From: a virus
Lineage: Duplodnaviria; Caudoviricetes
DNA: 63,203 nt
Direction: 5' to 3' (one strand)
Virus record (IMG/VR): IMGVR_UViG_3300043436_001856
Span: 1 to 63,203 of that record
Shown: positions 17,275 to 62,709 of the stretch, in pieces
How the letters are laid out: each line of letters opens with the position of its first letter
Position numbering within the stretch: position 1 is the stretch's first letter
The notes under the pieces: model-generated
The model's input: only the letters and a program-made list of their open reading frames with translations
Told to the model about the DNA's origin: nothing
Databases searched by the model: none
Translations under genes and position numbers: made by a program

Positions 17275-18268
17275 TGCTAATTAGTTTATTGTAAATAGCA
17301 AAACGGCGTTTGTTTACTTCGTGCAAGTTGAAGTTCTTATTGCAATAGTCATACAACGCGTTCCCGTAGCTTTTACGGGCGTCAGGGTCTTTGGTTAACA
17401 ACTTAATCCAATAATACCAATCCTTTTGACTGTTGACGTGACAAGCGGGATAAAACCCCCTGTACGGGTCAACATTGCTAACAATTGCAGGGTTCTTCTT
17501 TGCCGCAGTTTCAAGTACCTTCAAATTAGACTTCATTGAATTAAACTTTGAATCAATTAACGGTATTAATGAAATATCGGAATCGCAATAAGCCGCCATA
17601 TATGAAGTCACTTCGTTGTAATTGTATATTTTAGGGTTTAGTTTCAATCCGTTAGTAAATGCCGCAATCATTGAATCCCAAATTGGCTTTTCGCCTTCAT
17701 TGTACCCTGCAATTACAGTTTTAACCGGGAAATTGATTCGCTTCATTGGGTTACGTAATATTTCCATATCCTTCCCGTGCGTTCCCGAACCTGACCAAAA
17801 TAAACGGACAAGGTCTGATTCTGTTTTGTAATCCTTAAATTGTTCTTCGCCGTATGGAATCGCATTTGGCAATATTTCAATATTCTGATTGTATTGGTAA
17901 ACTTCTTCAGCTAATCGTTCGTGCGTAACTGTGCAAAGGTCGGCAATACGAATCCACGCCAATATTTGTTCGGTAACGTTATTTAAAACATAATGTTCGT
18001 AAAGTATATGTGAAGGTTCAAGCTTCCAAAAATCGTCGTTGTCAACTATTAATTTAAACCCGTATTTTTTGCGCCATTCAAACATTTGTTCGGGCGTTAT
18101 GTTTGCCAACATACGATTCATAACAACAATGTCATAATTCCCTTCAAAAGTTTCTTCGCTTATTGTATCGGTCATTAAACAATAATCCTTCTTCATATTT
18201 ACCAACGGCATCATAATTCTATGATAACCAACCCCACTTGTTTTGCTCGTAATTGCTAAAATGCGCAT
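17261..18268 (-). CDS. Glycosyltransferase (GT-B/GT4-like)
   Basis: GVGYHR, DxDD, NAIP, WSGSGTH, FNxxKSNLKxLE, SxVxPY motifs. Confidence 0.8.
   Translation of the reverse strand: MRILAITSKTSGVGYHRIMMPLVNMKKDYCLMTDTISEETFEGNYDIVVMNRMLANITPEQMFEWRKKYGFKLIVDNDDFWKLEPSHILYEHYVLNNVTEQILAWIRIADLCTVTHERLAEEVYQYNQNIEILPNAIPYGEEQFKDYKTESDLVRLFWSGSGTHGKDMEILRNPMKRINFPVKTVIAGYNEGEKPIWDSMIAAFTNGLKLNPKIYNYNEVTSYMAAYCDSDISLIPLIDSKFNSMKSNLKVLETAAKKNPAIVSNVDPYRGFYPACHVNSQKDWYYWIKLLTKDPDARKSYGNALYDYCNKNFNLHEVNKRRFAIYNKLISNAGN
17292..17319 (-). promoter_or_regulatory. Candidate phage late promoter (AAGTA-N16-CTATTTA) inside the 3' end of the GT gene
   Basis: Same spacing as the other four; copy B box at 48946..48952. 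Confidence 0.45.
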
Positions 18269-18945
18269 TTAATTTGTTTTTCATTATGATAAATAGGTTG
18301 GTATTTTTCCCAAACTGATTGCGCACGTGCTAAACTTTCGTCCTTCATACGTCTGTATTCTGTCCCGTTGCCAACGTCGTGTCCAATATGTTCTGACCTT
18401 AATTCGGGTAAATAGTAATTAGTAAACCCGGCAATGGTTGCACGTTCTGCGTAATCCCTGTCTTGCATTCCGTACGGGTCATATTCGGTATTATAACCGC
18501 CAATCGTATCAATTAATTCCCTTGTAAAATAGTTATTTCCAAAAGGCGTATGCGTTTTGTGTATTCCGTCAACCAATGGCGGCAATTCTTCAACGCAATG
18601 TATGCCAATAATCCCTGTTTTTGACACACGTTTTGAAAACATAACCCAATTTTTAAGCCAATTTTCGGGCAATAGTATGTCATTTGCCAATATACAAACG
18701 CCGTCGTATTCCTGTGTTATTGATAAACCAAAATTAACCCCTGCGGCAATACCCCTTTTATGAAGTGACCAATTAGCATAATGCCAATTATAATATTTTT
18801 GTATTTGTGAAAATTGTTCTTCGTCACTTCCATTGTCAATAAGAAAACAATGCGCGTCGTGACCGCTATTGTAAAAATTCTTGTCAACAACCTGCTTTGT
18901 CAGGTCTGCCCTATTTTGGGTTAATAATATTACGGCTATATTCAT
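18256..18945 (-). CDS. Glycosyltransferase family 2-like
   Basis: T.NR...IDNGS, GIAxxxN, NDI, IGGY...YGxQDxDY motifs. Confidence 0.8.
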   Translation of the reverse strand: MNIAVILLTQNRADLTKQVVDKNFYNSGHDAHCFLIDNGSDEEQFSQIQKYYNWHYANWSLHKRGIAAGVNFGLSITQEYDGVCILANDILLPENWLKNWVMFSKRVSKTGIIGIHCVEELPPLVDGIHKTHTPFGNNYFTRELIDTIGGYNTEYDPYGMQDRDYAERATIAGFTNYYLPELRSEHIGHDVGNGTEYRRMKDESLARAQSVWEKYQPIYHNEKQIKCAF

Positions 18946-19417
18946 TTATTCCAATTTTACGTGCGGGTACACCTGCATATTTTGTAAATTCTTCTGTTGC
19001 GCCTTTAATGAATGCACTTGCGCCAATCATACAACCGCGTTCAATAGTTGTAAATTGATGCAATACTGCGTTTAATCCAATATTTGAATATTGTTTTACA
19101 ATTGAATGTCCGCCAATCTTTGCGCCGCAACTTATTGTCACATTATCCTGAATTAAACAATCGTGTCCGATATGTGCGTGTTTCATAATAAAACAATTAT
19201 TCCCAATAAATGTAATATCTTTTGTCCCTGCGTCAATGGTAACCAATCCTGTTATAACATTGTTATTGCCAATATAAACTTTGCCTTTTTCTTCGTCCCA
19301 ATGCTTTTTGTGTTCAGCCGGGTCGCCTATAATACAATAAGCGCCAATGTAATTGTTGTCGCCTAAAATAACATTTTTGCCAATTATGGCGGTTGGGTGT
19401 ATAATATTATTAGCCAT
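18911..19417 (-). CDS. LpxA-like left-handed beta-helix acyl/acetyltransferase
   Basis: IHPTAII, hexapeptide repeats, HIGHDC, GGH, HQF, GVPAR. Confidence 0.85.
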   Translation of the reverse strand: MANNIIHPTAIIGKNVILGDNNYIGAYCIIGDPAEHKKHWDEEKGKVYIGNNNVITGLVTIDAGTKDITFIGNNCFIMKHAHIGHDCLIQDNVTISCGAKIGGHSIVKQYSNIGLNAVLHQFTTIERGCMIGASAFIKGATEEFTKYAGVPARKIGINEYSRNIINPK

Positions 19418-19766
19418 TGTTCTTTGGTTTACGTCCGCGTTTCTTCGGTTCAGGTTTAATTAATTCAACCCCTAATCTTTGGTCATTTTCTGAAGGTGTA
19501 TTTTCAAATACAATGTTTTCTATTGGTAAACTTTTGGGTTGTTGCTCATACCATTTATACAACCTCATAATCATTTCGTACTTACACGAACCGCACCAAA
19601 CAGACAATAAAAAATTAGGGTCTAAATATAATCTGTAAATATGTTCGTACATTTGAAGTTCGGCAAATTCAAGGTTGCGAATATAACCGTTCTTTGCGCT
19701 TTCATAATTTCCAATATTGGCTTCCAACCAATCGCGGTGTTCTGTTTTTATTTCCATAATTTCCAT
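19410..19766 (-). CDS. Hypothetical CxxC protein with a basic AT-hook-like tail
   Basis: WCGSC and KKRGRKPK; conserved in copy B. Confidence 0.6.
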   Translation of the reverse strand: MEIMEIKTEHRDWLEANIGNYESAKNGYIRNLEFAELQMYEHIYRLYLDPNFLLSVWCGSCKYEMIMRLYKWYEQQPKSLPIENIVFENTPSENDQRLGVELIKPEPKKRGRKPKNNG

Positions 19767-19987
19767 ATTAATTTTGAAACAATCGGTGCTAAAAATCCTG
19801 CAATAAAAATTGTTGACGTAATGTTTTGGATTAATTCAGGTGCGAAATAGTGTATTGGTGCAATCCACGCAGCCAAGCAACTTCCGCAATTGAAAGGCTT
19901 GAAATTGATTCGCCATTTAATTGGTAATTGGTGAATATCGTTAAAAAATAGTGATGCACAGACGGCGGTTAAAATTGATAAAATCAT
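19748..19987 (-). CDS. Small membrane protein with KPFNCxxCLxxW motif
   Basis: 79 aa, hydrophobic, conserved in copy B. Confidence 0.65.
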   Translation of the reverse strand: MILSILTAVCASLFFNDIHQLPIKWRINFKPFNCGSCLAAWIAPIHYFAPELIQNITSTIFIAGFLAPIVSKLIWKLWK

Positions 19988-20484
19988 TTTCTAATATTTG
20001 TTTTCATTAATTTTTTGGTTTTATTTATAGTTCTGACAATGGACATATAAGGAATTCCTGTTTTTCTGCTTAATTCTTTTGCGTTCTTCTTAAAGTCAAT
20101 CGCATACAGTTTCAAAATTTCCTTATTGTACCAATGTAAATCTTCTAAATTCCTTTCAAGTTTTTCAAACAATTCTGTCGGTTCTTCGTTTAGTCGCGTC
20201 AATTCCTTGTTTACTTCATTGCCAACAAATTCCGTGTAATTCCTGTAATTCTTATAAAATGTACTTCTGTCGCTTTTAATCATATTTAACATTATTCGCA
20301 CAATGTAAAATTTTAATTCGCTTCTTTGATACATTCCAACCAACTTTGATTCGTCCATTTCGCAAAGAACTAAAAAAACTTCAGCTTTCAAATCGTACTG
20401 CAATTCTTCAGGTTGCATTTTACCAAAGGCGTCGTTAACTTCCTTTGATTCCCAATATTCAGCTAAAATTTCATTTTTGACCAT
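19984..20484 (-). CDS. ECF sigma-factor-like protein (candidate late transcription factor)
   Basis: Region-2-like DLxxEVFLxL and region-4-like LxWYxKEILKLY...ELSRKTGIPYxSI HTH. Confidence 0.7.
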   Translation of the reverse strand: MVKNEILAEYWESKEVNDAFGKMQPEELQYDLKAEVFLVLCEMDESKLVGMYQRSELKFYIVRIMLNMIKSDRSTFYKNYRNYTEFVGNEVNKELTRLNEEPTELFEKLERNLEDLHWYNKEILKLYAIDFKKNAKELSRKTGIPYMSIVRTINKTKKLMKTNIRK

Positions 20485-20777
20485 TCAATTAAAGTTGGTT
20501 TATTGTCCACTTCAGTACAAATATACACAATTCCACCACATTCGTAAATATCTTTTAATCTGTCTTTTTGTTCCACGCTTAACCGGTCACCAATCTTTTT
20601 GACTTCAACCGCTACATAAACGCCGTTTTCTGTGTACCCTTGTAAATCCGCCCAACCTTTTTGAATTGTACCTTTACGCTTCCCAAATGGAATATTGTTA
20701 ACCCTGTTTAATCTGTACCCAATGTATTCAAGGTTTGATTTTGCCCACTTTGTAAGTTCGTTTGCTGATATGTCCAT
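20463..20777 (-). CDS. VRR-NUC/PD-(D/E)xK nuclease
   Basis: GWAD...AVEVK...DRLSxEQ...GG motif. Confidence 0.8.
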   Translation of the reverse strand: MDISANELTKWAKSNLEYIGYRLNRVNNIPFGKRKGTIQKGWADLQGYTENGVYVAVEVKKIGDRLSVEQKDRLKDIYECGGIVYICTEVDNKPTLIEWSKMKF

Positions 20778-20903
20778 ATTTTTTCGTAAAATTCTTTTTT
20801 AAATTTCAGCCTATTTATTTTCGGTTCAACTTCAGTATAACAACCATAAAAGTCGGTAAAATTATCGGTATAACAATATTTAATTGTTCCGTAATGCGTA
20901 TAT

Positions 20904-21647
20904 TTAATTTGATAAATTTTCAAAATATTTAACTAAAGCTAATTTTTTACATTGTGTTTCAATAAAGTCTTCATTTTTTATGTCTTTACTGAATTTTTTT
21001 GCGTCCATAGGGTGCATTTTATTCATTCTTTGTAAATTGTCTTCACGTACAACCTTAATCGTGTATAAAATTTCTTCAGGCGTAAACTTCAACTTCTTTT
21101 GTTTTAATAGGATTGCAAATACTTTGTCCGCATTGAATACCCTGTTAAAGTCCTGACGTTTACCATTTAGCCAATCGTTCTTTGTAAATTCAACAATTTC
21201 GTCGTCTGTCAATTGCGGAACAGGCGGTTCAGGTGGCGGCGGAATATTTTTACGAACTTCGTTTGCTTTGGCTTTATAGGCATTCATTATTTGGGATATG
21301 TATTTAGGTGAAAACTTTTCAAAATGGTCTGTATTACATTCAAAACGACCTTGTACTGCCATTTTAAACGCAATCCTGAATTCATTTATTGTAAAATGCG
21401 GATAAGTTGTACGAATATAGTCTTCAATAATATCCAATTCCATTTTGTCAGGCAAACGTGTTAACCCAATCAAAGTAAAAATATAAGCCAACGTACTTTT
21501 TAAATTATGCACGTCAACAACTGCTAATTTTTCGCCCTTAAAAGCTTCAACAATTGGTAAATCTTCTTTAGCTATTAACCCAATCGGAAAGTCCTTCCAT
21601 TCTTTTGCGACTTGCGGCGGTTGGGTCAGTATTTTTTGTATTTCCAT
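20904..21647 (-). CDS. Putative replication accessory protein (helicase-loader-like position)
   Basis: 247 aa overlapping the initiator gene; EFRxAF...HFxxFSxxYI; function inferred from position. Confidence 0.5.
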   Translation of the reverse strand: MEIQKILTQPPQVAKEWKDFPIGLIAKEDLPIVEAFKGEKLAVVDVHNLKSTLAYIFTLIGLTRLPDKMELDIIEDYIRTTYPHFTINEFRIAFKMAVQGRFECNTDHFEKFSPKYISQIMNAYKAKANEVRKNIPPPPEPPVPQLTDDEIVEFTKNDWLNGKRQDFNRVFNADKVFAILLKQKKLKFTPEEILYTIKVVREDNLQRMNKMHPMDAKKFSKDIKNEDFIETQCKKLALVKYFENLSN

Positions 21648-22272
21648 ATTTTATTCGGTTTTGTAACCACGTGTTAACGCGGCGTTTTACGTCAAAAAAC
21701 TTTTCTGATTCATAACGCAATTTACCACTTTTTGACGGTTCGCACCAATAGGCAATAAATTCTTCGTAAGATTCCGACAAGGTATTTTTGTAAGGTTCAA
21801 TTAAAATTAAAAAATTTGTTTGTGGGTCAACCGTAGGTTGAACAGTTATAATACTATTTACTTTACTTTCATTTACTTTACTTTTCTTTTCTTTATGGTC
21901 GTTACGAACACTTTTGTAATGCGTTACATTTTCCGCAATGTCTTGATTTTCACGCCATTGTGAAATTCTTTTAAGGTTTTTTTCTTTTTTTATCTTGTAC
22001 TTTTCACTAAAGTTTAGCAATTGTTTGTTGAAAGTTTCACCATTGTTTGATGAAATTATGTCAATACTTTCCATAAAGTTCCAACATTTATCAAGCTTTT
22101 TGCCAACCTTTAATTGCATTTTTAGCACGTCAGTATTAACAGGTTTTTCCTGTTTAGCTAATTTTTCAAGGATAGTATAAAACAATCCCAAACCCTCATA
22201 TCCGTATTTCATAAAAAGCAAAGCAACCTTTTCATCTTCAAACGCGTTGCTATCGTGCAAAAAATATTTCAT
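21568..22272 (-). CDS. Replication initiator/replisome organiser (Lin1244/DUF4373-like N-terminus)
   Basis: YFxHDSNAxxDEK...YGYEGLGLFYxILE; central KxK/SKV low-complexity linker; C-terminal FIxYW...RxxTW. Confidence 0.7.
   Translation of the reverse strand: MKYFLHDSNAFEDEKVALLFMKYGYEGLGLFYTILEKLAKQEKPVNTDVLKMQLKVGKKLDKCWNFMESIDIISSNNGETFNKQLLNFSEKYKIKKEKNLKRISQWRENQDIAENVTHYKSVRNDHKEKKSKVNESKVNSIITVQPTVDPQTNFLILIEPYKNTLSESYEEFIAYWCEPSKSGKLRYESEKFFDVKRRVNTWLQNRIKYGNTKNTDPTAASRKRMEGLSDWVNS
21857..21895. repeat. 5-bp-period (TTTAC/TTTTC) array inside the initiator gene; candidate origin
   Basis: tttactttactttcatttactttacttttcttttcttt; also present in copy B near 53479..53517. Confidence 0.5.
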
Positions 22273-22274
22273 AT

Positions 22275-22361
22275 AAAAAAAGGGTCGCGGGACGCCGGGA
22301 AATGGTACTTCCCGAAAATCCTTTGACCCAATATATTCCTAATTGCGTTGTACCATAACGC
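22275..22361 (-). ncRNA. Structured cis-RNA (two hairpins with complementary loops plus U-tract) in the initiator 5' leader
   Basis: GCGTT-ATGGTAC-AACGC and GGGTC..CGGGAA-GTACCAT-TTCCCG..GACCC-T7; compensatory change in copy B. Confidence 0.7.
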
Positions 22362-22367
22362 GTTTAT

Positions 22368-22799
22368 TTAATTCCTGTCTGCAAATATAATGCTTTTTTC
22401 AATTCTTTTTTCAAGGAATGCAATTTTATTTCTGAACCAATCCGCCGTTTCAATTAAATCCTTTGCCGAATTGATATTATACATAACCGTCGTATGGTCG
22501 CCAACCCCAATAAATTGTCGTATTTCGCTTAATGAAAGTTTGGTATGCTTACGTATTAAATACGCAGCCGCCTTCCTTGCGTCAACAATGTTTTTGGTTC
22601 GGCTTTTAATTGACATATTTGTATCAAAAATTTCCTCAACTAATAAAGCAATCTTTTTGGCTTCACTTGAAATTTCAGGGTCAATAATAACTTCGTCCTG
22701 TTTTATAAGGTTGTTTTCCTTCATTATATTATGCAGCGCCCTTAAACTTTGCCTGTGCATTTTATAAAAGTGAATCATTTCGCTTTGTAATTGTTGCAT
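22368..22799 (-). CDS. DnaA domain IV (C-terminal HTH)-like protein
   Basis: RTxxIVDARxxAxYLIR..T.LSLSEI....GxxDHTTVMY matches the DnaA signature; no AAA+ domain. Confidence 0.8.
   Translation of the reverse strand: MQQLQSEMIHFYKMHRQSLRALHNIMKENNLIKQDEVIIDPEISSEAKKIALLVEEIFDTNMSIKSRTKNIVDARKAAAYLIRKHTKLSLSEIRQFIGVGDHTTVMYNINSAKDLIETADWFRNKIAFLEKRIEKSIIFADRN
22382..22389 (-). promoter_or_regulatory. -7 box TATATTTG upstream of the structured leader
   Basis: Exact Bacteroidota -7 consensus, conserved at 54004..54011; -33 spacing imperfect. Confidence 0.55.
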
Positions 22800-22802
22800 A
22801 TT

Positions 22803-23045
22803 TTAAAATTCTAAATCGTCGTTATAAATTGGTTGGTTGTTTTGTGGCTTTACAGGCGCATTGTTGGCATCTGTTGGCGCTACGTAAGTATCTTCATATA
22901 TTTTGAAATCCGGGTGTTTTGGGTCTGTTTTGTACGAATTAAACCACATTGAATACTTTTTACCATTGATTGCAAAATTAATTACTTCACCTTTAGCCGT
23001 TTGGCGCTTCCAAGCACCCCAATTTTCTTTTTTTACTTCTGACAT
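22803..23045 (-). CDS. Small ssDNA-binding-like protein
   Basis: GAW...N.YK...HPD(F/Y) core with an acidic DDLEF tail, in the ERF cluster. Confidence 0.55.
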   Translation of the reverse strand: MSEVKKENWGAWKRQTAKGEVINFAINGKKYSMWFNSYKTDPKHPDFKIYEDTYVAPTDANNAPVKPQNNQPIYNDDLEF

Positions 23046-23046
23046 T

Positions 23047-23262
23047 TTATATTTGGTTTGTGGAATCTTCTGATTCCGGTTTAAAAAATACTGCTTTAAA
23101 ATTACATTCCTTTTCCCACTTGTTTAAAAATTTTTTTAATTCTTCGTAAGCTTCCGGTGCATACCAACAATAATGGTAAACTTCAGCTAATAACATTTGA
23201 CGTTCCATTGGAAGCAATTTTTGCATTCCGTTTTCAAGGTTTTGATAAGTTTCTTGTTTCAT
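23047..23262 (-). CDS. Hypothetical protein
   Basis: 71 aa, conserved in copy B. Confidence 0.7.
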   Translation of the reverse strand: MKQETYQNLENGMQKLLPMERQMLLAEVYHYCWYAPEAYEELKKFLNKWEKECNFKAVFFKPESEDSTNQI

Positions 23263-23263
23263 A

Positions 23264-23659
23264 TTATAGGTTTATTTTGGCTTTTTCCCAACTTAAAATT
23301 GAACGAATTGCGTCTATTTGGTGAACTGAAGAAGCGTTTATTCTGTCAAATGCGTTTTTTAAACGTGACCATTCACGCGCCTTACTTTTAACCCACATAT
23401 TTACAGTTGACGTTGCCAATTTACCTTCCATAATTTCGTGGATTTTGTCGCCAATTTCCATATCAATAACGCATTCAATTTTATATTCTGCGGCGGTTCT
23501 ATATTCGCCTGATTGTGTCATTGCAACGTTTAACGTGTCCAATCGTTTAATCAAAGCGTCGTGGTAATCCGCCGAATCATTTTTAGGCAATGGCTTCTGT
23601 AAATAGTCCAACATTTTTTCCGCCTTATTCGTTAATTCTTCAATTATATATTCGCGCAT
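23264..23659 (-). CDS. Hypothetical helical protein (possible recombination mediator)
   Basis: 131 aa coupled to erf; nearly identical in copy B. Confidence 0.6.
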   Translation of the reverse strand: MREYIIEELTNKAEKMLDYLQKPLPKNDSADYHDALIKRLDTLNVAMTQSGEYRTAAEYKIECVIDMEIGDKIHEIMEGKLATSTVNMWVKSKAREWSRLKNAFDRINASSVHQIDAIRSILSWEKAKINL

Positions 23660-24207
23660 TATTTACTAATTTGGTTTGCTTGTAATACTTTAAATGCTTT
23701 ATTGTAATCGTCTTCTTTTGTAAACGATTCAATTTTAATTGCCATTTTATTCTTTTTTTCTTCTGTGTATGGCGTATTTTCCAATAAAGTCTGTAAATAT
23801 AAACGCTTGTCGTCGCCAACTTCGTCTTTGTGTTCGTTGGTTGCGTCTGCGTCTTTGGTATCGTCAATTGCAAACAATCCATTTAATGCGTATTTACGCG
23901 CATACGAAGAAGCTGACCCGGTTATTTGCGCGGCGTCCATTCCTTTCTTTACTTCTTCTTCACGCGCCCAACCGTGCGCACTAATTGAATTGTCTTCGTC
24001 TGTTAACAATGTCGCAGTTGCTTTGACATAAATTCTGTCGCCAACTTGCACAATTTCGTCGCTAATTATTAAACAGGTTTTTTCTTTTGCCAATATTGGC
24101 TTAACCGCTTCAATAATGTCTTCGGCGCTTCTGTACCTGTAATTGCCGAACTTGTTTAATTGACCCTTTGGCGCTTTTAATTCTGCCTGAATTTTGTAAA
24201 TGTTCAT
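23659..24207 (-). CDS. erf: ERF-family single-strand annealing protein
   Basis: IQAELKAPKxQxNxFGxYxYRSAEDI and QITGSASSYARKYAL. Confidence 0.9.
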   Translation of the reverse strand: MNIYKIQAELKAPKGQLNKFGNYRYRSAEDIIEAVKPILAKEKTCLIISDEIVQVGDRIYVKATATLLTDEDNSISAHGWAREEEVKKGMDAAQITGSASSYARKYALNGLFAIDDTKDADATNEHKDEVGDDKRLYLQTLLENTPYTEEKKNKMAIKIESFTKEDDYNKAFKVLQANQISK

Positions 24208-24224
24208 AGGTTTATTTTTGGTTT

Positions 24225-24473
24225 TTAAAATTCGTATTCTTCAAATTTTTCTGTCCAATCCGACATTGGTGTAAATGGTATCGGCGGGAACGGGTTTTTT
24301 GGTTGAACTAACATTTCAGGATAATGCTTCTTTTTGAAGTTCTTTAAATTTTCTTTTGCTGAACTTAACATTTCCATACGTTTACGCGCTTCGGCTGCAT
24401 TGCTAATATCAAACAACCATTGAAAATATCGCACGTTTTCCTGAAGTTTAAAAAGTTTCAATTCTAAATTCAT
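24225..24473 (-). CDS. Hypothetical protein
   Basis: 82 aa, conserved in copy B. Confidence 0.7.
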   Translation of the reverse strand: MNLELKLFKLQENVRYFQWLFDISNAAEARKRMEMLSSAKENLKNFKKKHYPEMLVQPKNPFPPIPFTPMSDWTEKFEEYEF

Positions 24474-24679
24474 AATTGGTGTTTAATAAATACGTTTTCA
24501 ATTTCTTCTAAAGCTGAATGCGCAAGTTCTTCAATGCGTTCAATATTGTTTTCTTTTACGTAGTGTAAAATAAGATTCAAAGAACCGCGACTGAATCCCA
24601 ATGCACCGGCATAGTCTGCGGCGCGGCTTAATGGTTTGTGCATTAATTCACCGATTGTGGTTTGTGTTTCTGTATTCAT
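24470..24679 (-). CDS. Hypothetical protein, first gene behind early promoter 2
   Basis: 69 aa, conserved in copy B. Confidence 0.7.
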   Translation of the reverse strand: MNTETQTTIGELMHKPLSRAADYAGALGFSRGSLNLILHYVKENNIERIEELAHSALEEIENVFIKHQL

Positions 24680-24696
24680 TTGGTTTGTTTAGACAA

Positions 24697-24728
24697 CAAA
24701 TATACAGGTTTTGCACAACACAAACAAA
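24697..24728 (-). promoter_or_regulatory. Bacteroidota primary-sigma promoter (early promoter 2)
   Basis: TTTG-N20-TATATTTG; conserved at 56329..56360. Confidence 0.75.
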
Positions 24729-24772
24729 GCTATTTAGTGACGAACGGCAAAATAAAATGATAAACGGTAAAT

Positions 24773-25207
24773 CTAATTTATGTCTTTGTGAAAATATAAC
24801 ATTTCGTCCCCGCCGTATGCGTATTCAGGGAAATAAAACTTAAACCCGCAGGAAATTAAGTTATTTGCGGACGGGTAATTGTCCTTTGTAGTATATGTAA
24901 TTGCAACAAATGAATTTTCTTTTGCTGCTTTTAATCTTATTTTAATAAGCTTTTTATGTAATCCCAAACCCCTAAACCTTTTGTCAACCCACGCGCGGTT
25001 GAATATACAAATGCCCTGCGTATAAATAGAACCGCAATAAGCGACAATTGTTTTCTTTTTATCTAATATAACCCACCAATCCCGATTGTGTTTAAACTCG
25101 TTGCCGCAACCCTTAAAATTTGGGTTGGTACGGTCTAATTCCTGAAGCTGAATATAAGCGTCAAAGTTTAGAATTTTACCTTTACTATATATTTTTAAAA
25201 GCTTCAT
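24773..25207 (-). CDS. GNAT acetyltransferase
   Basis: VDKRFRGLGL acetyl-CoA motif, NxxSxNNLxxxGF. Confidence 0.85.
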   Translation of the reverse strand: MKLLKIYSKGKILNFDAYIQLQELDRTNPNFKGCGNEFKHNRDWWVILDKKKTIVAYCGSIYTQGICIFNRAWVDKRFRGLGLHKKLIKIRLKAAKENSFVAITYTTKDNYPSANNLISCGFKFYFPEYAYGGDEMLYFHKDIN

Positions 25208-25395
25208 TATAACCCTTTTAATTCTGCTTCGTCAGGGCGTTCAATTTCCTTGAATTCAAGCCTATTGCCACCACGAATCTTTGCTAAATTTTTGCGAATA
25301 TCCTGTTCAATGGCATATAATTCCTGAAGTTTCTTTGTAAAAAATTCGTCTTGTTGGGACAATGTCCACTTATTGAATCCTTTTGGCATTCGCAT
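25207..25395 (-). CDS. Hypothetical protein
   Basis: 62 aa, conserved in copy B. Confidence 0.65.
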   Translation of the reverse strand: MRMPKGFNKWTLSQQDEFFTKKLQELYAIEQDIRKNLAKIRGGNRLEFKEIERPDEAELKGL

Positions 25396-25576
25396 CTGTT
25401 TTTAGTTTTATAAGTTTTTTTAAATAAATTGATAAGTCCAACGCTTCTTCGTAGGCGTGTTGTAACCAATCAATTTCCGTTAGGTCTGTTCTGTCCATTG
25501 TTGTACCGTATTCCTTAATTCCTTTGTCTTCACGTGCCAACAGGTCGTCAATAATTGTATATAGGATTTTGCTCAT
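25370..25576 (-). CDS. Small all-alpha NTP-pyrophosphatase-like protein
   Basis: RxxxGxxxYGTT...WLxHAxEExxDxxxYL. Confidence 0.55.
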   Translation of the reverse strand: MSKILYTIIDDLLAREDKGIKEYGTTMDRTDLTEIDWLQHAYEEALDLSIYLKKLIKLKTDANAKRIQ

Positions 25577-26328
25577 TATTTGTCTGTTTTAGAATGAAAT
25601 TTATTGCAAACTTTACATTTGTATTGAATACGGGTTAAGCCGGTTGCGGTTACAACTGAATTATTTTTTATAAGGTCTTCAGAACCCGCGCCACATTCAG
25701 GACACGAACCCCTGTCCTGACCAAATACAACGCCATAATGCGTCTTTGGTGCAATATGATTGCCTAATAATTTGTAAACTTCTTCTAATAATGAAACGTC
25801 CTTTTTACAGTATTTAATCATTTTTTCCATTGCAACCTTGTCTTTGTTCAATAAAATATCCTTCCAAAGATTGAATTCGGTTTTAATTTTTCCGCCTAAA
25901 CCTAAAAATTCAGCAATGTAATTTAATCTGTTTGATTGAAAACGGAATTTTGAACGGGCAACCTTTAGCGTGTCAATTGTTTGATAATTTGGGAACATAT
26001 CAATCCCGTGAAACAAACAACGGGTTCTAATCCAAGCCAAATCAAATTTGTCGCCATTGTGACCAACCAATTCATTAGCAGTATTTGCAACCGCAATAAA
26101 CTGTTCCAACATTCTTTTATCATTCTGTTTGGCGTCCCATTGTAAAGCATAAACTTCTTTTTCGTCTTCCCATTTATAGCAAATGCAAATAATTGCACGT
26201 TCGCGAATAATGTTGTCTGTTGTAATATTCTTTTTGTAACCGGCTTCCCAAAATAATCCAATATTGGGTGAAGTTTCAATGTCAAAAAATAGTCTGCGGC
26301 GTTTTGTTTTTAGGTTTGTTTTTGTCAT
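25576..26328 (-). CDS. RNase H-fold 3'-5' exonuclease (YprB/PolB-exo-like) with C-terminal Zn ribbon
   Basis: FDIET, GHNGDKFD, YCKKDV; CPEC...CKVC. Confidence 0.85.
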   Translation of the reverse strand: MTKTNLKTKRRRLFFDIETSPNIGLFWEAGYKKNITTDNIIRERAIICICYKWEDEKEVYALQWDAKQNDKRMLEQFIAVANTANELVGHNGDKFDLAWIRTRCLFHGIDMFPNYQTIDTLKVARSKFRFQSNRLNYIAEFLGLGGKIKTEFNLWKDILLNKDKVAMEKMIKYCKKDVSLLEEVYKLLGNHIAPKTHYGVVFGQDRGSCPECGAGSEDLIKNNSVVTATGLTRIQYKCKVCNKFHSKTDK

Positions 26329-28561: not shown

Positions 28562-30876
28562 TATTTAGCTTTTAAAATGTTTATTTCAGCTTTTAATTCT
28601 TGAATTGCTTTTGCTAAAATTGGCGTTAACAAAGAATAATCAACACCTTGCGATTTTATATTACCTTCTTCGTCAATATCGTCTTTTTCACCAACAACTG
28701 CGTAAGGTATTACTTCTTTTAATTCGTGAGCAAGTACACCATACATTCTTGAATTATTTAATTTCCAAGAAAAGTCATATAATTTAATATCTGATAATAA
28801 TTTTAAAGCATCAAAATCTTTTAAATCTTCTTTTAATCTATAATCTGAAGAAGTATTAAATTGTGCATTTGTTGTGTTACTTGAAATTGAACCAATAACA
28901 TTACCACCATTTCCAAGAATAACGTGACTTAACCCTGAACCGCTTCCCCTATTCATATAATATATTCCATTAATACCTATTGACGTTGCATTTGCATTAA
29001 CTGTTGCAACAGACGTTTGGTTTAAGAATATATTACCATAATTTATTTGGTTGCCGTCACTTGTTATCTTCATTCTATCTACAAAAGTAGCATTAGAATT
29101 AGCACTTCCACTTTCAGCACTTTGAAATGTAAATTCCTTGTTTACAATTTCTAATTTAGCAGCAAGTCCTGTTGAAATATATTTCCAATTCGTTCCATCA
29201 TAAAATGCATTATTGTTTATGTATAATTCAGGATTACCTGTTCTTACATATAATGATGCATTTTTAAATTGATAACCGGTATAACTTGCACCAACCCCCC
29301 AAGCGGAAGGAATAACACCAAAACCCATATTACCATTACCTTCTATTGTTAAAGCAACCGTGCCACCACCAATACCAAATTTCATATTAGTTTCTGAACG
29401 AATGCCTAAACCTAAACCGCCGCCTGTCATTAATCCATTTTGCGTTCCAATATATCCTACAACAGTAGAATTATTGTAAATTAAAGGAATATTTATGGTT
29501 GTTGCGTTAGATGTTTTAAATGTTACAGATTCAGCAGTTGTACCACTAAATGTTGCAGCACCATTACCCGCTAAAGAAAATGCAGGTGTTGTAAATGTTG
29601 AACCCCCTGAAGTTGTTGAAGGTGTAATATTAAATCCACTTCCGATATATGCAGTATCAATTTGCCAATTTGTTCCACCTGACCAACCTAATAATTGTAA
29701 TGCAGCACCTGCATTTCCTGATGCAATACCTAATTTTAATAATCCATTTGTGGTAACCTGTGAACCCGTACCCATAAAAATAGTACTACTAAATACTGCA
29801 CTTGTTCCATTTAAATTTGAACTAAAACTTTTTACACCACCAATTGATTGTGTTGTTGTTAAATCAACAAAATTTTGCGTTATTGACCCTGTTCCGCCAT
29901 TTGAAATTGACAAAGCATTTGTAAGCGTTAAACTTTTTATTGTCGTAACGCCTGTTGAACGAACAATTGACAAAGGTGTTTCAATTAATGAACCTGCGTC
30001 TGTATATGTACGAATAAACAAATCCGCACCTACATTTGAACCTGATTCTGTTCCACTTACTTCTAAATTTATTCTATTACTATTGTCTGAACGGAAACTA
30101 ATTGATTTTGCAACAGAAACGTTTGCGTCTAAATTAGCAATTAAAGCATTTGCGCCGCCGTCAATATGTATTTTTGTTGTTGGGTTTGCGATACCAATAC
30201 CAAATTCACCTGTTTGTAAAACTGAAACTAATTCGCTTGTTGTTGCTTCATTATAAATTCTAAATCTATGGTCAGACTGAACATTGCCAATTGACCATTT
30301 GTTAGTTCCCGCACTTGCAAAACCTAAAAAAGCGTTGTTTGTTGAAGTTCCGTTTAAACGTCCAATAATGCCTGAACCAAAAACGTCCAATGCAGTTGTT
30401 GGCGCATTTGTGTTAATACCCAATCTGTTATTAGTATCGTCAAAAAACAAGTTTGCATTGTCCTGACTTAATGCACCCGAAGCACCTATAAAAGGTACTG
30501 AACCCGTCGTTAATGCCGTTGTAATTGTCAAAGTTGCAACAGAACCAACCAAACTAATATTACCGTCAAACCCGTTTGCGTCACTAAATACCAATGAATT
30601 GATAATGTTTGGCGATAATTCAACGTAAGAAGTCAAACCTGTGTCCCAACGGTATAAAACGTTTGTATCTAAAGCAATGTAAATTGTGTCAGCAACACCA
30701 ACCAAAGGAAATGCCGCAACGTTTGCGTATTCTTCAACTGTACCTGTAAATAAAGACGCCATTTGTGAAAGCGTAATTTTTTTACTTATACCTGTTGACG
30801 GGTCGCCAATAATTGTCAAGTCAGACAAAGACGGCGTTAATTCGGTCGCTAATTGATTAATTTTCTTTGATTCCAT
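28561..30876 (-). CDS. Tail fibre/receptor-binding protein with S74 intramolecular chaperone
   Basis: RLGIxT/GIGIANP repeats; SDYRLK cleavage motif, GVLAHE, VDYS, AIQEL. Confidence 0.85.
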   Translation of the reverse strand: MESKKINQLATELTPSLSDLTIIGDPSTGISKKITLSQMASLFTGTVEEYANVAAFPLVGVADTIYIALDTNVLYRWDTGLTSYVELSPNIINSLVFSDANGFDGNISLVGSVATLTITTALTTGSVPFIGASGALSQDNANLFFDDTNNRLGINTNAPTTALDVFGSGIIGRLNGTSTNNAFLGFASAGTNKWSIGNVQSDHRFRIYNEATTSELVSVLQTGEFGIGIANPTTKIHIDGGANALIANLDANVSVAKSISFRSDNSNRINLEVSGTESGSNVGADLFIRTYTDAGSLIETPLSIVRSTGVTTIKSLTLTNALSISNGGTGSITQNFVDLTTTQSIGGVKSFSSNLNGTSAVFSSTIFMGTGSQVTTNGLLKLGIASGNAGAALQLLGWSGGTNWQIDTAYIGSGFNITPSTTSGGSTFTTPAFSLAGNGAATFSGTTAESVTFKTSNATTINIPLIYNNSTVVGYIGTQNGLMTGGGLGLGIRSETNMKFGIGGGTVALTIEGNGNMGFGVIPSAWGVGASYTGYQFKNASLYVRTGNPELYINNNAFYDGTNWKYISTGLAAKLEIVNKEFTFQSAESGSANSNATFVDRMKITSDGNQINYGNIFLNQTSVATVNANATSIGINGIYYMNRGSGSGLSHVILGNGGNVIGSISSNTTNAQFNTSSDYRLKEDLKDFDALKLLSDIKLYDFSWKLNNSRMYGVLAHELKEVIPYAVVGEKDDIDEEGNIKSQGVDYSLLTPILAKAIQELKAEINILKAK

Positions 30877-53269: not shown

Positions 53270-53894
53270 ATTTTATGCGATTTTGTAACCACGTATTCAC
53301 GCGGCGTTTAATATCAAAAAACTTTTCTAATTCATAACGCAATTTACCACTTTTTGACGGTTCGCACCAATAGGCAATAAATTCTTCGTAAGATTCAGCT
53401 AAAGTATTTTTATAAGGTTCAATTAAAATTAAAAAGTTTGTTTGTGGGTCAACCGTAGGTTGAACAGTTATAATACTATTTACTTTACTTTCTTTTACTT
53501 TACTTTTCTTTTCTTTATGGTCGTTACGAACACTTTTGTAATGCGTTACATTTTCCGCAATGTCCTGATTTTCACGCCATTGTGAAATTCTTTTAAGGTT
53601 TTTTTCTTTTTTTATCTTGTACTTTTCACTAAAGTTTAGCAATTGTTTGTTGAAAGTTTCACCATTGTTTGACGAAATTATGTCAATACTTTCCATAAAG
53701 TTCCAACATTTTTCAAGTTTTTTGCCAACCTTTAATTGCATTTTTAGCACTTCAGTATTAACAGGTTTTTCCTGTTTAGCTAACTTTTCAAGGATCGTAT
53801 AGAACAATCCTAAACCTTCATATCCGTACTTCATAAAAAGCAAAGCAACCTTTTCGTCTTCAAATGCATTGCTATCGTGTAAAAAATATTTCAT
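53190..53894 (-). CDS. Replication initiator (copy B)
   Basis: Orthologue of 21568..22272. Confidence 0.7.
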   Translation of the reverse strand: MKYFLHDSNAFEDEKVALLFMKYGYEGLGLFYTILEKLAKQEKPVNTEVLKMQLKVGKKLEKCWNFMESIDIISSNNGETFNKQLLNFSEKYKIKKEKNLKRISQWRENQDIAENVTHYKSVRNDHKEKKSKVKESKVNSIITVQPTVDPQTNFLILIEPYKNTLAESYEEFIAYWCEPSKSGKLRYELEKFFDIKRRVNTWLQNRIKYGNTKNTDPTAASRKRMEGLSDWVNS

Positions 53895-53897
53895 AAT

Positions 53898-53983
53898 AAA
53901 AAAGGGTCGCGGGACGCCGGCAAATGGTACTTGCCGAAAATCCGTTGACCCAATATATTCCTAACTGCGTTGTACCATAACGC
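53898..53983 (-). ncRNA. Structured kissing-loop leader RNA (copy B)
   Basis: Same architecture as 22275..22361 with a CGGCAA/TTGCCG stem. Confidence 0.7.
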
Positions 53984-53989
53984 TTTTAA

Positions 53990-54421
53990 TTATTTCCTGT
54001 CTGCAAATATAATGCTTTTTTCAATTCTTTTTTCAAGGAATGCAATTTTATTTCTGAACCAATCTGCGGTGTCAATTAAATCCTTTGCTGAATTGATATT
54101 GTACATTACTGTCGTATGATCGCCAACCCCAATGTATTGCCTTATTTCGCTTAATGACAAAGTCGTGTATTTTCTGATTAAATACGCAGCCGCCTTCCTT
54201 GCGTCAACAATATTTTTGGTTCGGCTTCTTACTGACATATTAACGTCAAAAATTTCCTCAACAATCAAAGATATTTTCTTTGCTTCATTTGACAATTCAG
54301 GGTCAATAATAACTTCTTCCTGTTTTATTAAATTGTTTGCCTTCATTATATTGTGCAACAGTCTTAAACTTTGTCTGTGCGACTTATAAAAGTCTAAAAT
54401 TTCGCTTTGTAATGTTTGCAT
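53990..54421 (-). CDS. DnaA domain IV-like protein (copy B)
   Basis: DHTTVMY signature. Confidence 0.8.
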   Translation of the reverse strand: MQTLQSEILDFYKSHRQSLRLLHNIMKANNLIKQEEVIIDPELSNEAKKISLIVEEIFDVNMSVRSRTKNIVDARKAAAYLIRKYTTLSLSEIRQYIGVGDHTTVMYNINSAKDLIDTADWFRNKIAFLEKRIEKSIIFADRK

Positions 54422-60447: not shown

Positions 60448-62709
60448 TTATTTATTTATTAATGCTTTTAATTCTTCAATTTGTTTTTGTTGTTCTTGTA
60501 CTGATTTTACTAATGCTGCAATAATTGGTCTATCTTGCAAACCTATAAACTTATTATTATCATCACCACTTTCAACATATGCTTGAGGAATAAAATGTTT
60601 AACTTCTTGCGCAATAAATCCTAATTGCTTTTGCATAGATTCATCATCATTTTTCATTCTATACAAAGTAGGTTTTAAATTTAAAATTTCGTTTAATCCA
60701 ATTGTAGATTCTTCAAAATCTTTCTTTTTATTAATATCAGATAATGCAGTATAAACACCTGTTGTTGCACTTATTTCAGCTAAAAAAGCAGGTGTGCCAT
60801 CATTATACAAACGTAAACCTGCATTATAACCAATCCATAAATAATTAAATGACCCTTCTCTATTTTGAGTACCTAAAGCTGCACTTGTACCTAATGCAAA
60901 AAGCACACCTGTAACACTTGCAAAACCATTAACTTGCAATTTATAACCATTGTCTGTTGTAGAATTTATTAATAAATTTCCTGAACTTGTCATTAACATT
61001 TTAGTTACAGGTGTACCACTTGCACCACTATTTGAAGTGTACCATTCAAAACCGTGATATGCATTAAATCTCATTCTATCACCAAAAGGTGCATTGATTG
61101 CACCAAAAGTGTCTGAAGCAGTTGTACCAAGTCCTATAAAAGGATTATCCCCTGTTGTATATCCACCGGCTGCACCAAAAATAGTATGTCCTATTCTATT
61201 TGTTAAAGTATTTATTAATGTAGTAGCGCCAAGATAATTTAATATTAATGCATCTGTTAAAGTATTTGTAGAACTTGAAACTTGAACAGTTAAACCACCT
61301 CTTTCTCCGTCAAAATTATTTGTTTTTAAAGCATAATATCCTAATCCTGAAGCCGGAAAAGAAGAATTTGCTCTACCATAAATTAAACCATTTACTACTA
61401 AACTGCTTGAAAAAACACCAACACCTGCGCTGCTTAAAGTAAATTTAGGTGCTGATAAATCAAAATTTGATGAAAAATATAAAGTTCCGTCACTTGGCTT
61501 TGTACCAATTGCCCACCTATCCGCAACACCATTTTCAGTAAATGAAATAACACCATTTCTTGTTGAAGTATGTCTAATATTTGCTTCAATTTGTGTACTT
61601 CCATTATCTCTAATTAAGACAGACCCATTTGTTAAAGAAACTGTTAAAATATTTGTAAAAGTTTTAGCACCACCAATTGATTGTGTTGTTGTTAAGTCAA
61701 CAAAATTTTGCGTTGTTGAACCCGTACCACCATTTGCAATTGACAAAGCATTTGTAAGCGTTAAACTTTTTAATGTCGTAACACCTGTTGAACGAACTAT
61801 TGAAAAAGGTGTTTCTAATAAAGAACCTGCATCTGTGTATGTTCTTAAAAAAAAGTTAGCACCTGCATTTGAACCTGATTCTGTACCTGAAACTTCTAAG
61901 TTAATTCTATTACTATTGTCTGAACGGAAACTAATTGATTTTGCAACAGAAACGTTTGCGTCTAAGTTAGCAATCAAAGCACTTGAACCGCCGTCAATAT
62001 GAAGTTTTGTTGTTGGGTTTGCAATACCAATTCCAAATTCGCCTGTTTGTAAAACTGAAACTAATTCGCTTGTTGTTGCTTCATTATAAATTCTAAATCT
62101 ATGGTCTGACTGAACATTACCAACTGACCATTTATTAGTTCCTGCGCTTGCAAAACCAATAAATGCGTTGTTTGTTGAAGTACCGTTTACGCGCGTAATA
62201 ATTCCTGACCCAAAAGTATCAATTGCAGTTGTTGGCGCGTTTGTACCAATACCCAATCTGTTGTTTGAATCGTCCCAAAATAAGTTTGCGTTATCCTGTA
62301 ATAAAGCGCCTGAAGCACCAATAAAACCAATTGAACCTGTCGTTAATGCGGTTGTAATTGTAAGCGTTGCAACTGAACCAACTAAACTAATAGTTCCGTC
62401 AAATCCGTTTGCGTCGTTAAATACCAATGAATTGATAATGTTAGGTGACAATTCAACGTAAGAAGTTAAACCCGTGTCCCAACGATATAAAACGTTTGTA
62501 TCTAAAGCAATATAAATAGTGTCAGCCGCACCAACCAAAGGAAACGAAGCAAGGTTTGCGTATTCCTCAACAGTACCCGTAAATAAAGACGCCATTTGTG
62601 AAAGCGTAATTTTTTTACTTATTCCTGTTGTCGGGTCGCCTATAATTGTCAAGTCTGACAACGCCGGCGTAAGTTCTGTCGCTAATTGGTTTATTTTCTT
62701 TGATTCCAT
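60448..62709 (-). CDS. Tail fibre with S74 chaperone (copy B; different distal half)
   Basis: N-terminal ~345 aa orthologous to copy A; SDxxxKK, GFIAQEV, LVKSVQE. Confidence 0.85.
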   Translation of the reverse strand: MESKKINQLATELTPALSDLTIIGDPTTGISKKITLSQMASLFTGTVEEYANLASFPLVGAADTIYIALDTNVLYRWDTGLTSYVELSPNIINSLVFNDANGFDGTISLVGSVATLTITTALTTGSIGFIGASGALLQDNANLFWDDSNNRLGIGTNAPTTAIDTFGSGIITRVNGTSTNNAFIGFASAGTNKWSVGNVQSDHRFRIYNEATTSELVSVLQTGEFGIGIANPTTKLHIDGGSSALIANLDANVSVAKSISFRSDNSNRINLEVSGTESGSNAGANFFLRTYTDAGSLLETPFSIVRSTGVTTLKSLTLTNALSIANGGTGSTTQNFVDLTTTQSIGGAKTFTNILTVSLTNGSVLIRDNGSTQIEANIRHTSTRNGVISFTENGVADRWAIGTKPSDGTLYFSSNFDLSAPKFTLSSAGVGVFSSSLVVNGLIYGRANSSFPASGLGYYALKTNNFDGERGGLTVQVSSSTNTLTDALILNYLGATTLINTLTNRIGHTIFGAAGGYTTGDNPFIGLGTTASDTFGAINAPFGDRMRFNAYHGFEWYTSNSGASGTPVTKMLMTSSGNLLINSTTDNGYKLQVNGFASVTGVLFALGTSAALGTQNREGSFNYLWIGYNAGLRLYNDGTPAFLAEISATTGVYTALSDINKKKDFEESTIGLNEILNLKPTLYRMKNDDESMQKQLGFIAQEVKHFIPQAYVESGDDNNKFIGLQDRPIIAALVKSVQEQQKQIEELKALINK

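Follow-up and report, generated by a model that had tools for sequence, protein, structure and literature searches.

The window analysed here is a stretch of 63,203 nucleotides, positions 1 to 63,203 of the IMG/VR virus record IMGVR_UViG_3300043436_001856 (Duplodnaviria; Caudoviricetes). Its minus strand carries, in front of a replication-initiator gene, a short leader (22275-22389) whose RNA is predicted to fold into two hairpins with mutually complementary loops. These loops, termed X (22350-22356) and X' (22302-22308), are exact reverse complements over 7 nt, and in related leaders they change together in such a way that their complementarity is preserved. From these sequence comparisons, we are highly confident that the two loops take part in a real RNA kissing interaction. 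With less assurance, we infer that the leader RNA is probably a control element of initiator expression. It is apparently a real and undescribed one, and the interpretation proposed in a first-pass annotation of the same DNA, that of an RNA switch gating the initiator, is partly supported, namely as regards a sense-strand RNA with loop-loop pairing in the initiator leader, the switching itself and a role in replication timing or a plasmid-like state being putative. The features are the following, in window coordinates.

22382..22389, minus strand: -7 promoter box TATATTTG of the Bacteroidota sigma-A type, with a predicted transcription start at about 22377, 5 nt past the G
22345..22361, minus strand: hairpin 1, GCGUU[AUGGUAC]AACGC, a 5-bp stem (22361-22357 with 22349-22345) closed by the 7-nt loop X, AUGGUAC (22356-22350)
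22330..22344, minus strand: A/U-rich linker of 15 nt, single-stranded as judged from sequence and fold
22282..22329, minus strand: hairpin 2, GGGUC-AAA-GGA-UUUU-CGGGAA[GUACCAU]UUCCCG-GCG-UCC-CGC-GACCC, in three tiers
22329-22325 with 22286-22282, minus strand: basal stem of hairpin 2, GGGUC/GACCC
22321-22319 with 22292-22290, minus strand: middle stem of hairpin 2, GGA/UCC
22314-22309 with 22301-22296, minus strand: apical stem of hairpin 2, CGGGAA/UUCCCG
22308-22302, minus strand: apical 7-nt loop X' of hairpin 2, GUACCAU
22275..22281, minus strand: U7 tract directly 3' of hairpin 2, which is also the U-rich region just 5' of the start codon
21568..22272, minus strand: initiator/organiser gene of 234 aa, with its AUG (22272-22270) 2 nt (AU) past U7 and 9 nt from the foot of hairpin 2
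22368..22799, minus strand: upstream gene with a DnaA C-terminal helix-turn-helix (HTH) domain (PF08299, E 9.1e-15), the 3' end of which contains the leader promoter
53892..54011, minus strand: copy B of the whole element, at an offset of +31622 (-7 box 54011-54004, hairpin 1 53983-53967, hairpin 2 53951-53904)
53894-53892, minus strand: initiator AUG of copy B, preceded at the junction by U6AUU in the sequence

The first-pass annotation had reported the -7 box, the two hairpins, the U7 tract and the AUG 2 nt further on, and all of them were found on the minus strand where it had placed them. The perfect complementarity that it had claimed for the loops was verified (7/7), and it stops at the loop edges, with U/U and A/A mismatches just outside. 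Hairpin 2 has the anatomy of a terminator, its GC-rich basal stem ending in GACCC directly followed by U7 on the transcribed strand; a simple terminator scan missed it because the stem has internal loops. The leader occupies a gap of 95 nt, the sole intergenic gap of that size in the minus-strand gene block over 18000-26000. The gene that follows was rightly called a replication initiator, as its product matches Lin1244_N (PF14297, E 3.2e-07) and phrog_2562, 'replication initiation protein' (E 2e-09); its N-terminus, MKY.LHD, is invariant in 13 homologues.

In the window, a phage genome of about 31.6 kb is present twice, head to tail (1-31280 and 31281-63113), with about 89% identity between the copies, and a 90-bp terminal repeat follows. 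In copy B of the element, a pair of the apical stem is flipped from G-C to C-G (plus-strand G22299/C22311 becomes C53921/G53933), as had been noted, and the loops are identical to those of copy A. A covariance model of the element matches the window solely at the two leaders, with 80.2 and 82.9 bits (the latter for copy B), and its next match in the window scores 19.3 bits (E 0.38). RNAfold recovers both hairpins in each copy, and the minimum-free-energy and centroid structures contain these two hairpins only.

The evidence for the pairing comes from the relatives of this leader. Homologous initiator genes were gathered from 43 loci found by protein, 80 with an N-terminal alignment and 10 from genomes, which together gave 74 distinct leaders. 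These were sorted by inspection, a positive having to show a promoter box, a 5' hairpin and a U-tract hairpin with a loop complementing the 5' loop. The element was found in 39 of the 74, namely 19 leaders similar to that of the window (class Ia), 10 of class Ib, 6 of class Ic and 4 of class II, while 6 others are ambiguous. Over 16 distinct class Ia leaders, every cell of the loop-loop helix is paired (100%), with changes on both sides at 5 of its 7 pairs; when the 3' partners are slid by 1-3 columns as a control, the whole structure is only 29-45% paired.

A larger alignment (A3), built with MAFFT, comprises 46 distinct class Ia leaders, whose sequences are related, so that its cells are not independent events. 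In this alignment, the X-X' helix is paired in 100% of the cells and 6 of its 7 pairs covary, one of them being UA in 19 leaders, CG in 15 and GC in 12. The stems behave likewise: the apical stem is 100% paired with 5/6 pairs covarying, the basal stem 93.5% paired with 4/5 covarying, and all 5 pairs of the hairpin 1 stem change on both sides, its paired fraction of 88.7% being depressed by MAFFT gaps in the 3' arm. The structure as a whole is 95.9% paired, against 72.6% in shuffles, none of which (0/500) reaches the observed value. G-U pairs are found on the sense strand, as in the case of one basal pair that is UG in 22 sequences.

Pairing was also recovered from a search of IMG/VR in which only the flanks of hairpin 2 of one subtype were fixed, the seven loop bases being left open. 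This free-loop search returned 76 matches (61 unique), and every one of the 76 has an exact complement of its loop in an upstream hairpin loop, 28-30 nt away, this being the distance between loop X and the part of hairpin 2 that the pattern covers. Four loop variants are represented (GUCGGAU, GUCGCAU, GUCGUAU and GUCGUUU), and the hairpin 1 stems differ. A similar pattern with the flanks of the window-type hairpin 2, applied to metagenome contigs, was too loose and is useful only as a negative control: it gave a single true relative (L329) in at least 110 unique matches, and of 109 unrelated hairpins matched, 2 have an upstream 7-nt complement, neither of them in a hairpin loop. No window-type leader with other loops was found among the metagenome matches listed. 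Loop-loop covariation in homologues had been set beforehand as the test of the element, and it is observed both in the alignment (46/46 leaders paired, 6/7 pairs covarying) and in the free-loop search (76/76), which bears out the claim of an RNA-level, sense-strand element with loop-loop pairing. It is this comparative evidence, not the folding energy, that places the interaction beyond chance.

About six independent variants of the matched loop pair are found in class Ia, and at least 16 over all four classes. In one subtype, represented by 22 distinct leaders, hairpin 2 varies only at two central loop positions and at two unpaired bases; all 13 of its stem pairs are constant, whereas the matched loops come in four haplotypes, so that the loops change faster than the stems. 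The leader of the window and that of L031 have near-identical loops in swapped positions (GUACCAU in hairpin 2 of the window, GUACCAG in hairpin 1 of L031); it is the pairing that is conserved and not a recognised sequence. The linker measures about 14-16 nt across class Ia by hand count, and a T-run follows hairpin 2 in all the class Ia, Ib and Ic leaders seen.

The other classes are variations on this architecture. In class Ib leaders, the 5' hairpin is long, the middle one small and the terminator of the form GCCAG...CUGGC, with the loop pairs GUGAGAG/CUCUCAC, GUAGGAGU/ACUCCUAC, GUCGGAGU/ACUCCGAC, GUCAGAGU/ACUCUGAC and GUGGUAG/CUACCAC. In a pattern search for this class, 14 of 123 unique matches belong to it, and 4 of the 109 others reach 7 nt in a hairpin-like context. 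The class Ic loop pair is GUCGAGA/UCUCGAC. In class II, X occurs once more at the start codon, and in L029 and L032 this third copy sits as the loop of an additional, third hairpin. The three-copy sets read AACACAC/GUGUGUU/AACACAC in L029, CAGCAC/GUGCUG/CAGCAC in L032 and in L235/L241 (in the latter before a different gene), and CUGUGACG/CGUCACAG/CUGUGACG in L040. A class II search with an A/T-rich linker pattern returned mostly unrelated DNA; 6 of 45 distinct contexts pass a filter for the T-run and the -7 box, and one of these six, L249, is without the third copy of X. A direct repeat of 15 nt, AACACUGUGACGUUA, is present twice in the leader of L040 (about 140 nt before L040:1501), once at the 5' end and once immediately next to the initiator AUG. 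As the 5' copy also has an AUG and an open reading frame (ORF) of 7 codons behind it, this copy looks like a decoy start region.

Other copies of the two 7-mers were also considered. In the window, no other copy of ATGGTAC or GTACCAT lies in a hairpin loop, except for a weak case at about 61039, in copy B only. There, a hairpin-like sequence, TTTGAA[GTGTACCA]TTCAAA (about 61033-61052), contains all but one of the 7 bases of the leader loop motif in its loop and has no counterpart in copy A; this site is probably a chance occurrence. Related loci totalling 716 kb have 102 other X/X' copies, 18 of them in a hairpin-like context. The three recurrent contexts examined keep their sequence where the leader loops differ, and for this reason they were taken as chance. 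No outside target was found, the other X/X' copies in these 716 kb not covarying with the leader. The hairpin 1 loop also starts a mini-ORF of five codons, AUG GUA CAA CGC AAU UAG (22356-22339, minus strand). By eye, the ORF from hairpin 1 appears to run to a UGA overlapping the initiator AUG in L021-type leaders, and L031 is without it, so the mini-ORF was taken as not functional since it is not conserved. No conserved leader peptide was seen by eye in the leaders inspected, which were not scanned systematically.

The host phylum is most likely Bacteroidota, because the contigs with initiator relatives are labelled Bacteroidales, Chitinophagaceae, Paludibacter, Hymenobacter and Spirosoma. The sigma-A -7 element of this phylum is given as TANNTTTG, refined to TAHHTTTG, at -12 to -5 (PMC6847099, PMC9723704). 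Of 79 distinct class Ia leaders, 76 have such a box ahead of hairpin 1, the spacing being fixed at 8-10 or 21-26 nt; a single box is weak evidence, as the window has 95 of them on its two strands. In several subtypes, hairpin 1 falls at +1 or +2 of the predicted RNA. On the plus strand, there is no TAnnTTTG box over 22000-22420, and an antisense -7 box is absent in 78 of the 79 leaders, one promoter consensus having been tested. Together with the sense-strand G-U pairs, this lack of an opposite-strand box indicates that the functional molecule is the sense RNA.

The mechanism that we favour connects this RNA to the amount of initiator that is made. Transcription would start on the minus strand about 5 nt past the box, in the promoter-proximal leader of the initiator gene, and the RNA would form the small 5' hairpin and then, past the 15-nt linker, the long three-tier terminator-like hairpin. 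The loop of the former would kiss the apical loop of the latter, a pairing which is itself shown by the covariation. As the 2 nt between U7 and the AUG leave no room for a promoter of the sigma-A form described above, the initiator would depend on read-through of the terminator-like hairpin. Ribosomes would load at the U-rich 3' foot of hairpin 2. Bacteroidota do not use Shine-Dalgarno (SD) sequences. In this phylum, initiation is described as tuned by the structure of the start region, which lowers it (PMC6847099). The start region of the initiator is U-rich and lacks the favoured A at -3, and its positions -11 to -15 are paired in the basal stem; all this leads us to predict a low and tunable translation. 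The kissing contact would then alter the folding of the hairpin that holds both terminator and start site, and through read-through or ribosome access, it would set the amount of initiator. By analogy with the activator pseudoknot of the IncI/IncB plasmids, it is more likely that kissing in cis favours expression and that its loss favours termination or occlusion of the start site. Transcripts ending at U7 would be RNAs of about 100 nt carrying both loops.

Several observations weigh against this reading. The folding energy is unremarkable, with z-scores of -1.65 and -1.66 for the two copies, and 13/200 and 11/200 shuffles fold as well, so that energy alone is not significant and the case rests on the comparison with relatives. 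The element is missing from 29 of the 74 distinct leaders, and it is therefore dispensable for this family of initiator proteins. The direction of the regulation, kissing being either on or off, relies on analogy only, and the basal stem of a long hairpin may be unaffected by a contact made at the apex, the geometry by itself implying no effect on termination. Finally, the transcripts at hand do not cover the leader. Among the 24 sequencing runs listed, 6 RNA runs have small shares of the region, and the 4 of these that were compared, all lake metatranscriptomes, give six low-depth contig pieces (21785-22246, 22719-22900), none over the leader, which makes them uninformative on a small RNA (sRNA), on the start and on the stop. 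These pieces match the initiator gene and the upstream genes at 95-100% identity, and relatives of the phage appear to be present in the RNA libraries, with DNA carry-over being possible.

The same features can be read in other ways, the closest of which overlaps with the mechanism above. The U7-ended RNA of about 100 nt could act in trans as an sRNA that kisses the leaders of other genome copies 'hand in hand', giving feedback on gene dosage or superinfection immunity, with the loop variants as specificity groups. Fixed stems with varying matched loops indeed resemble specificity determinants, and from the sequences a trans role in dosage sensing or immunity may be envisaged. The faster change of the loops than of the stems in the subtype of 22 leaders speaks in this sense, but it rests on few independent events. 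Contigs sharing one IMG sample number contain several loop variants, the third X of class II at the start codon would make a natural trans target, and the CI RNA of phage P4 is described as acting thus on replication genes (PMC4825925). However, the contigs from RNA runs show no abundant short transcript, none of them covering the leader, the two loops would mask each other in cis, and there is the lack of an outside target noted above. We regard action in trans as possible but rather unlikely. Slightly more speculative is the idea of a 'sense countertranscript', whereby U7-ended RNAs would dock on the leaders of other copies, counting genomes or excluding relatives with the same loop without any antisense gene or repressor. 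Were this true, the rapidly changing bases at the centre of the loops would mark out heteroimmune specificity groups in lake phages that occur together, and the cassette would move as a module between unrelated initiator genes. A simpler possibility is that there is no switch at all: hairpin 2 and U7 would be a leaky terminator lowering the dosage of the initiator relative to the upstream early genes, and the kissing would only compact or stabilise the RNA. The conserved terminator anatomy fits this, as does the place of hairpin 1 at +1/+2 in several subtypes, 5' hairpins commonly protecting RNA, but loop diversification over fixed stems and the third X of class II at the start codon are left unexplained, and we find this reading improbable.

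Two further readings involve the other strand or the DNA itself. Attenuation of the pT181/pIP501 type, in which a plus-strand antisense RNA would bind the leader and induce the terminator, has been described for those plasmids (PMC5703833). It would suit a terminator located just 5' of the rep start, and the plus strand does carry the complement of hairpin 1 followed by TTTATTTAAT, with a terminator-like score. But conservation of this T-run is lacking (by eye, L025 is without it and L021 has a weak one), the antisense box is missing both in 78/79 leaders and in the window (plus strand, 22000-22420), and a cis-antisense RNA does not account for the mutual complementarity of two loops of the same strand, which makes it very unlikely. 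To a DNA-level element, that is, inverted protein-binding sites (iterons or operators) or a single-strand priming or origin signal, we give almost no credence. The element is an inverted repeat in the DNA, and it lies between the DnaA-HTH gene and the initiator gene, where origins often sit. Against this, the same X occurs with different initiator families, three different base pairs are found at one position while complementarity is perfect in 46/46 leaders, the repeats are always in hairpin loops with covarying stems, and the G-U pairs fall on the sense strand only, as do the U-run and the promoter. Iteron-like direct repeats were looked for in the leader and none was found. Candidate iterons or a candidate origin, as in other replisome-organiser genes, are suggested by the sequence inside the initiator gene, where two tandem 22-bp repeats (82% alike) and a TTTAC-rich repeat occur (22009-22052 and 21853-21893).

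The preferred reading, a leader RNA controlling the initiator in cis, concerns more than one type of gene. Over the 75 free-loop matches with a start codon, the gene downstream is a Lin1244_N initiator in 35, a DUF1376/primosomal-type protein in 18, a protein with a weak O-like match in 8, an HTH_36/DnaD_N-type protein in 5 and a DnaD-like replisome organiser in 2. The promoter-leader cassette thus precedes at least five families, and identical loop sequences are found with different ones, which argues against the 7-mers being binding sites of the initiator. Judging from the sequences, the cassette goes with the 'initiator slot' of the replication module and not with one protein. In the 7 remaining cases, a homing-endonuclease ORF (GIY-YIG in 6, HNH in 1) lies between the cassette and the gene of the initiator slot. 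Two such loci were checked, one GIY-YIG and one HNH, and in both the next gene is the weakly O-like one; endonuclease loci include L151:5110-5466 (minus strand) and L186:9619-10041 (plus strand). The insertion of these ORFs at the leader/initiator junction suggests a homing site there.

As for the phage itself, the record is a complete IMG/VR virus record with direct terminal repeats (DTR), classed as a complete DTR genome. Several stretches are non-homologous between the two genome copies (for example 28575-29823), and the window (1-63203) may be a chimeric concatemer of two strain variants instead of a single 63-kb genome. All ORFs judged to be real genes are on the minus strand. They include portal, terminase, tape measure, tail fibre and endolysin genes and a recombination and replication block, with an Erf-like annealing protein, a polymerase exonuclease subunit, a VRR-NUC nuclease, the DnaA-C-terminal-HTH protein and the Lin1244_N 'replication initiation' protein. 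The first-pass annotation had seen no repressor or integrase, and none was recognised among the 28 ORFs scanned, a scan that was not exhaustive. No blastn or tblastn match was obtained in cultured phages and plasmids, and the DNA runs with the region are labelled as lake or freshwater metagenomes.

RNA control of the synthesis of a replication initiator is a classic theme in plasmids and in P4. To our knowledge, control in the known cases relies either on an antisense gene or on a processed RNA with linear targets, and these cases all come from Proteobacteria or Firmicutes. What we describe here is likely, though predicted, to be an RNA-based initiator control that is widespread and modular in uncultured Bacteroidota phages. 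It takes the form of a compact and self-contained cassette (promoter, 5' hairpin and terminator-like hairpin) found with at least five unrelated initiator families and at least 16 matched loop pairs. It offers a testable model for three matters: initiator dosing by phages of a phylum devoid of SD sequences, orthogonal kissing pairs in a set provided by nature, and copy control or heteroimmunity possibly based on RNA alone. It is also a new candidate RNA family for annotating phage replication modules. In a check against Rfam, the window and 14 related loci gave no match at the gathering score; a permissive scan of 22230-22430 gave chance-level matches only, the best sub-threshold one being to an unrelated sRNA (19.5 bits against a cutoff of 155). 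No description of the element was found in full-text searches of the literature, subscription papers and supplementary files being outside their reach.

The comparison with known systems helps to situate the element. It has the signature of a kissing complex, with Watson-Crick complementarity confined to two hairpin loops and kept by compensatory change. In ColE1, the loops of RNA I and RNA II are also of 7 nt, with every base paired, and in the pRNA of phi29, a single RNA carries two loops that complement each other and covary between relatives. The likeness to ColE1 lies in these fully paired 7-nt loops, but the ColE1 partners are a sense and an antisense transcript that control primer formation, while the pRNA is a component of the packaging motor, and neither is a terminator leader before an initiator gene. 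In repZ-repA of IncI-alpha/IncB, a hairpin loop pairs at long range with a sequence by the rep start and so controls Rep translation. The first-pass annotation had invoked this system, but the analogy did not hold: IncI-alpha/IncB need a repY leader peptide with translational coupling and an antisense Inc RNA, whereas the leaders here have no antisense promoter (78/79 leaders) and, by eye and without a systematic scan, no conserved leader peptide. A coupled peptide is not what the ORFs look like (again by eye), with five codons in the window, a read-through form in L021 and none in L031. As for pairing with the start region, the partner in the window is the apical loop of a hairpin with its foot 9 nt from the AUG, and in class II, X abuts the AUG.

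The pT181 type, also invoked by that annotation, shares the layout of a terminator just before rep: in pT181/pIP501, less Rep is synthesised owing to a terminator-like hairpin located just ahead of the start codon in the rep leader (PMC5703833). These plasmids, however, need an opposite-strand countertranscript and alternative folds. Here, the complementarity is in two loops of the same strand and stops at the loop edges, there are two hairpins only, no alternative extended pairing and no mutually exclusive leader folds were found, and no antisense promoter is conserved (78/79 leaders), so that this analogy failed as well.

The closest parallels come from phages. In the c4 RNA of P1 and P7 (a1 b1/a' b'/a2 b2), regulator and targets are on one transcript and strand, and the loops pair with a site in the ribosome-binding region; P1 and P7 c4 differ by matched changes that set heteroimmunity. 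But c4 controls an antirepressor, its targets are linear and no terminator loop is involved. In the satellite phage P4, the CI RNA is a sense-strand leader RNA that pairs with its own transcript and brings about premature termination before the replication genes (PMC4825925). With its seqA/seqB/seqC arrangement, it resembles the element in being an untranslated sense leader complementary within its own transcript, and class II even has the same X...X'...X order. It differs in that the window has just two partners, one X and one X', both of them hairpin loops, X' being the apical loop of the terminator-like hairpin itself; three-copy forms are found only in class II (L029, L032, L040, L235/L241). 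The host phylum also differs, Bacteroidota here against Enterobacteria for P4, and neither CI nor c4 gives an Rfam match to the element, nor is there a sequence match to P4 CI. By analogy, the leader would thus work most like the P4 CI RNA, with a resemblance to the c4 RNA of P1/P7, while being a member of neither.

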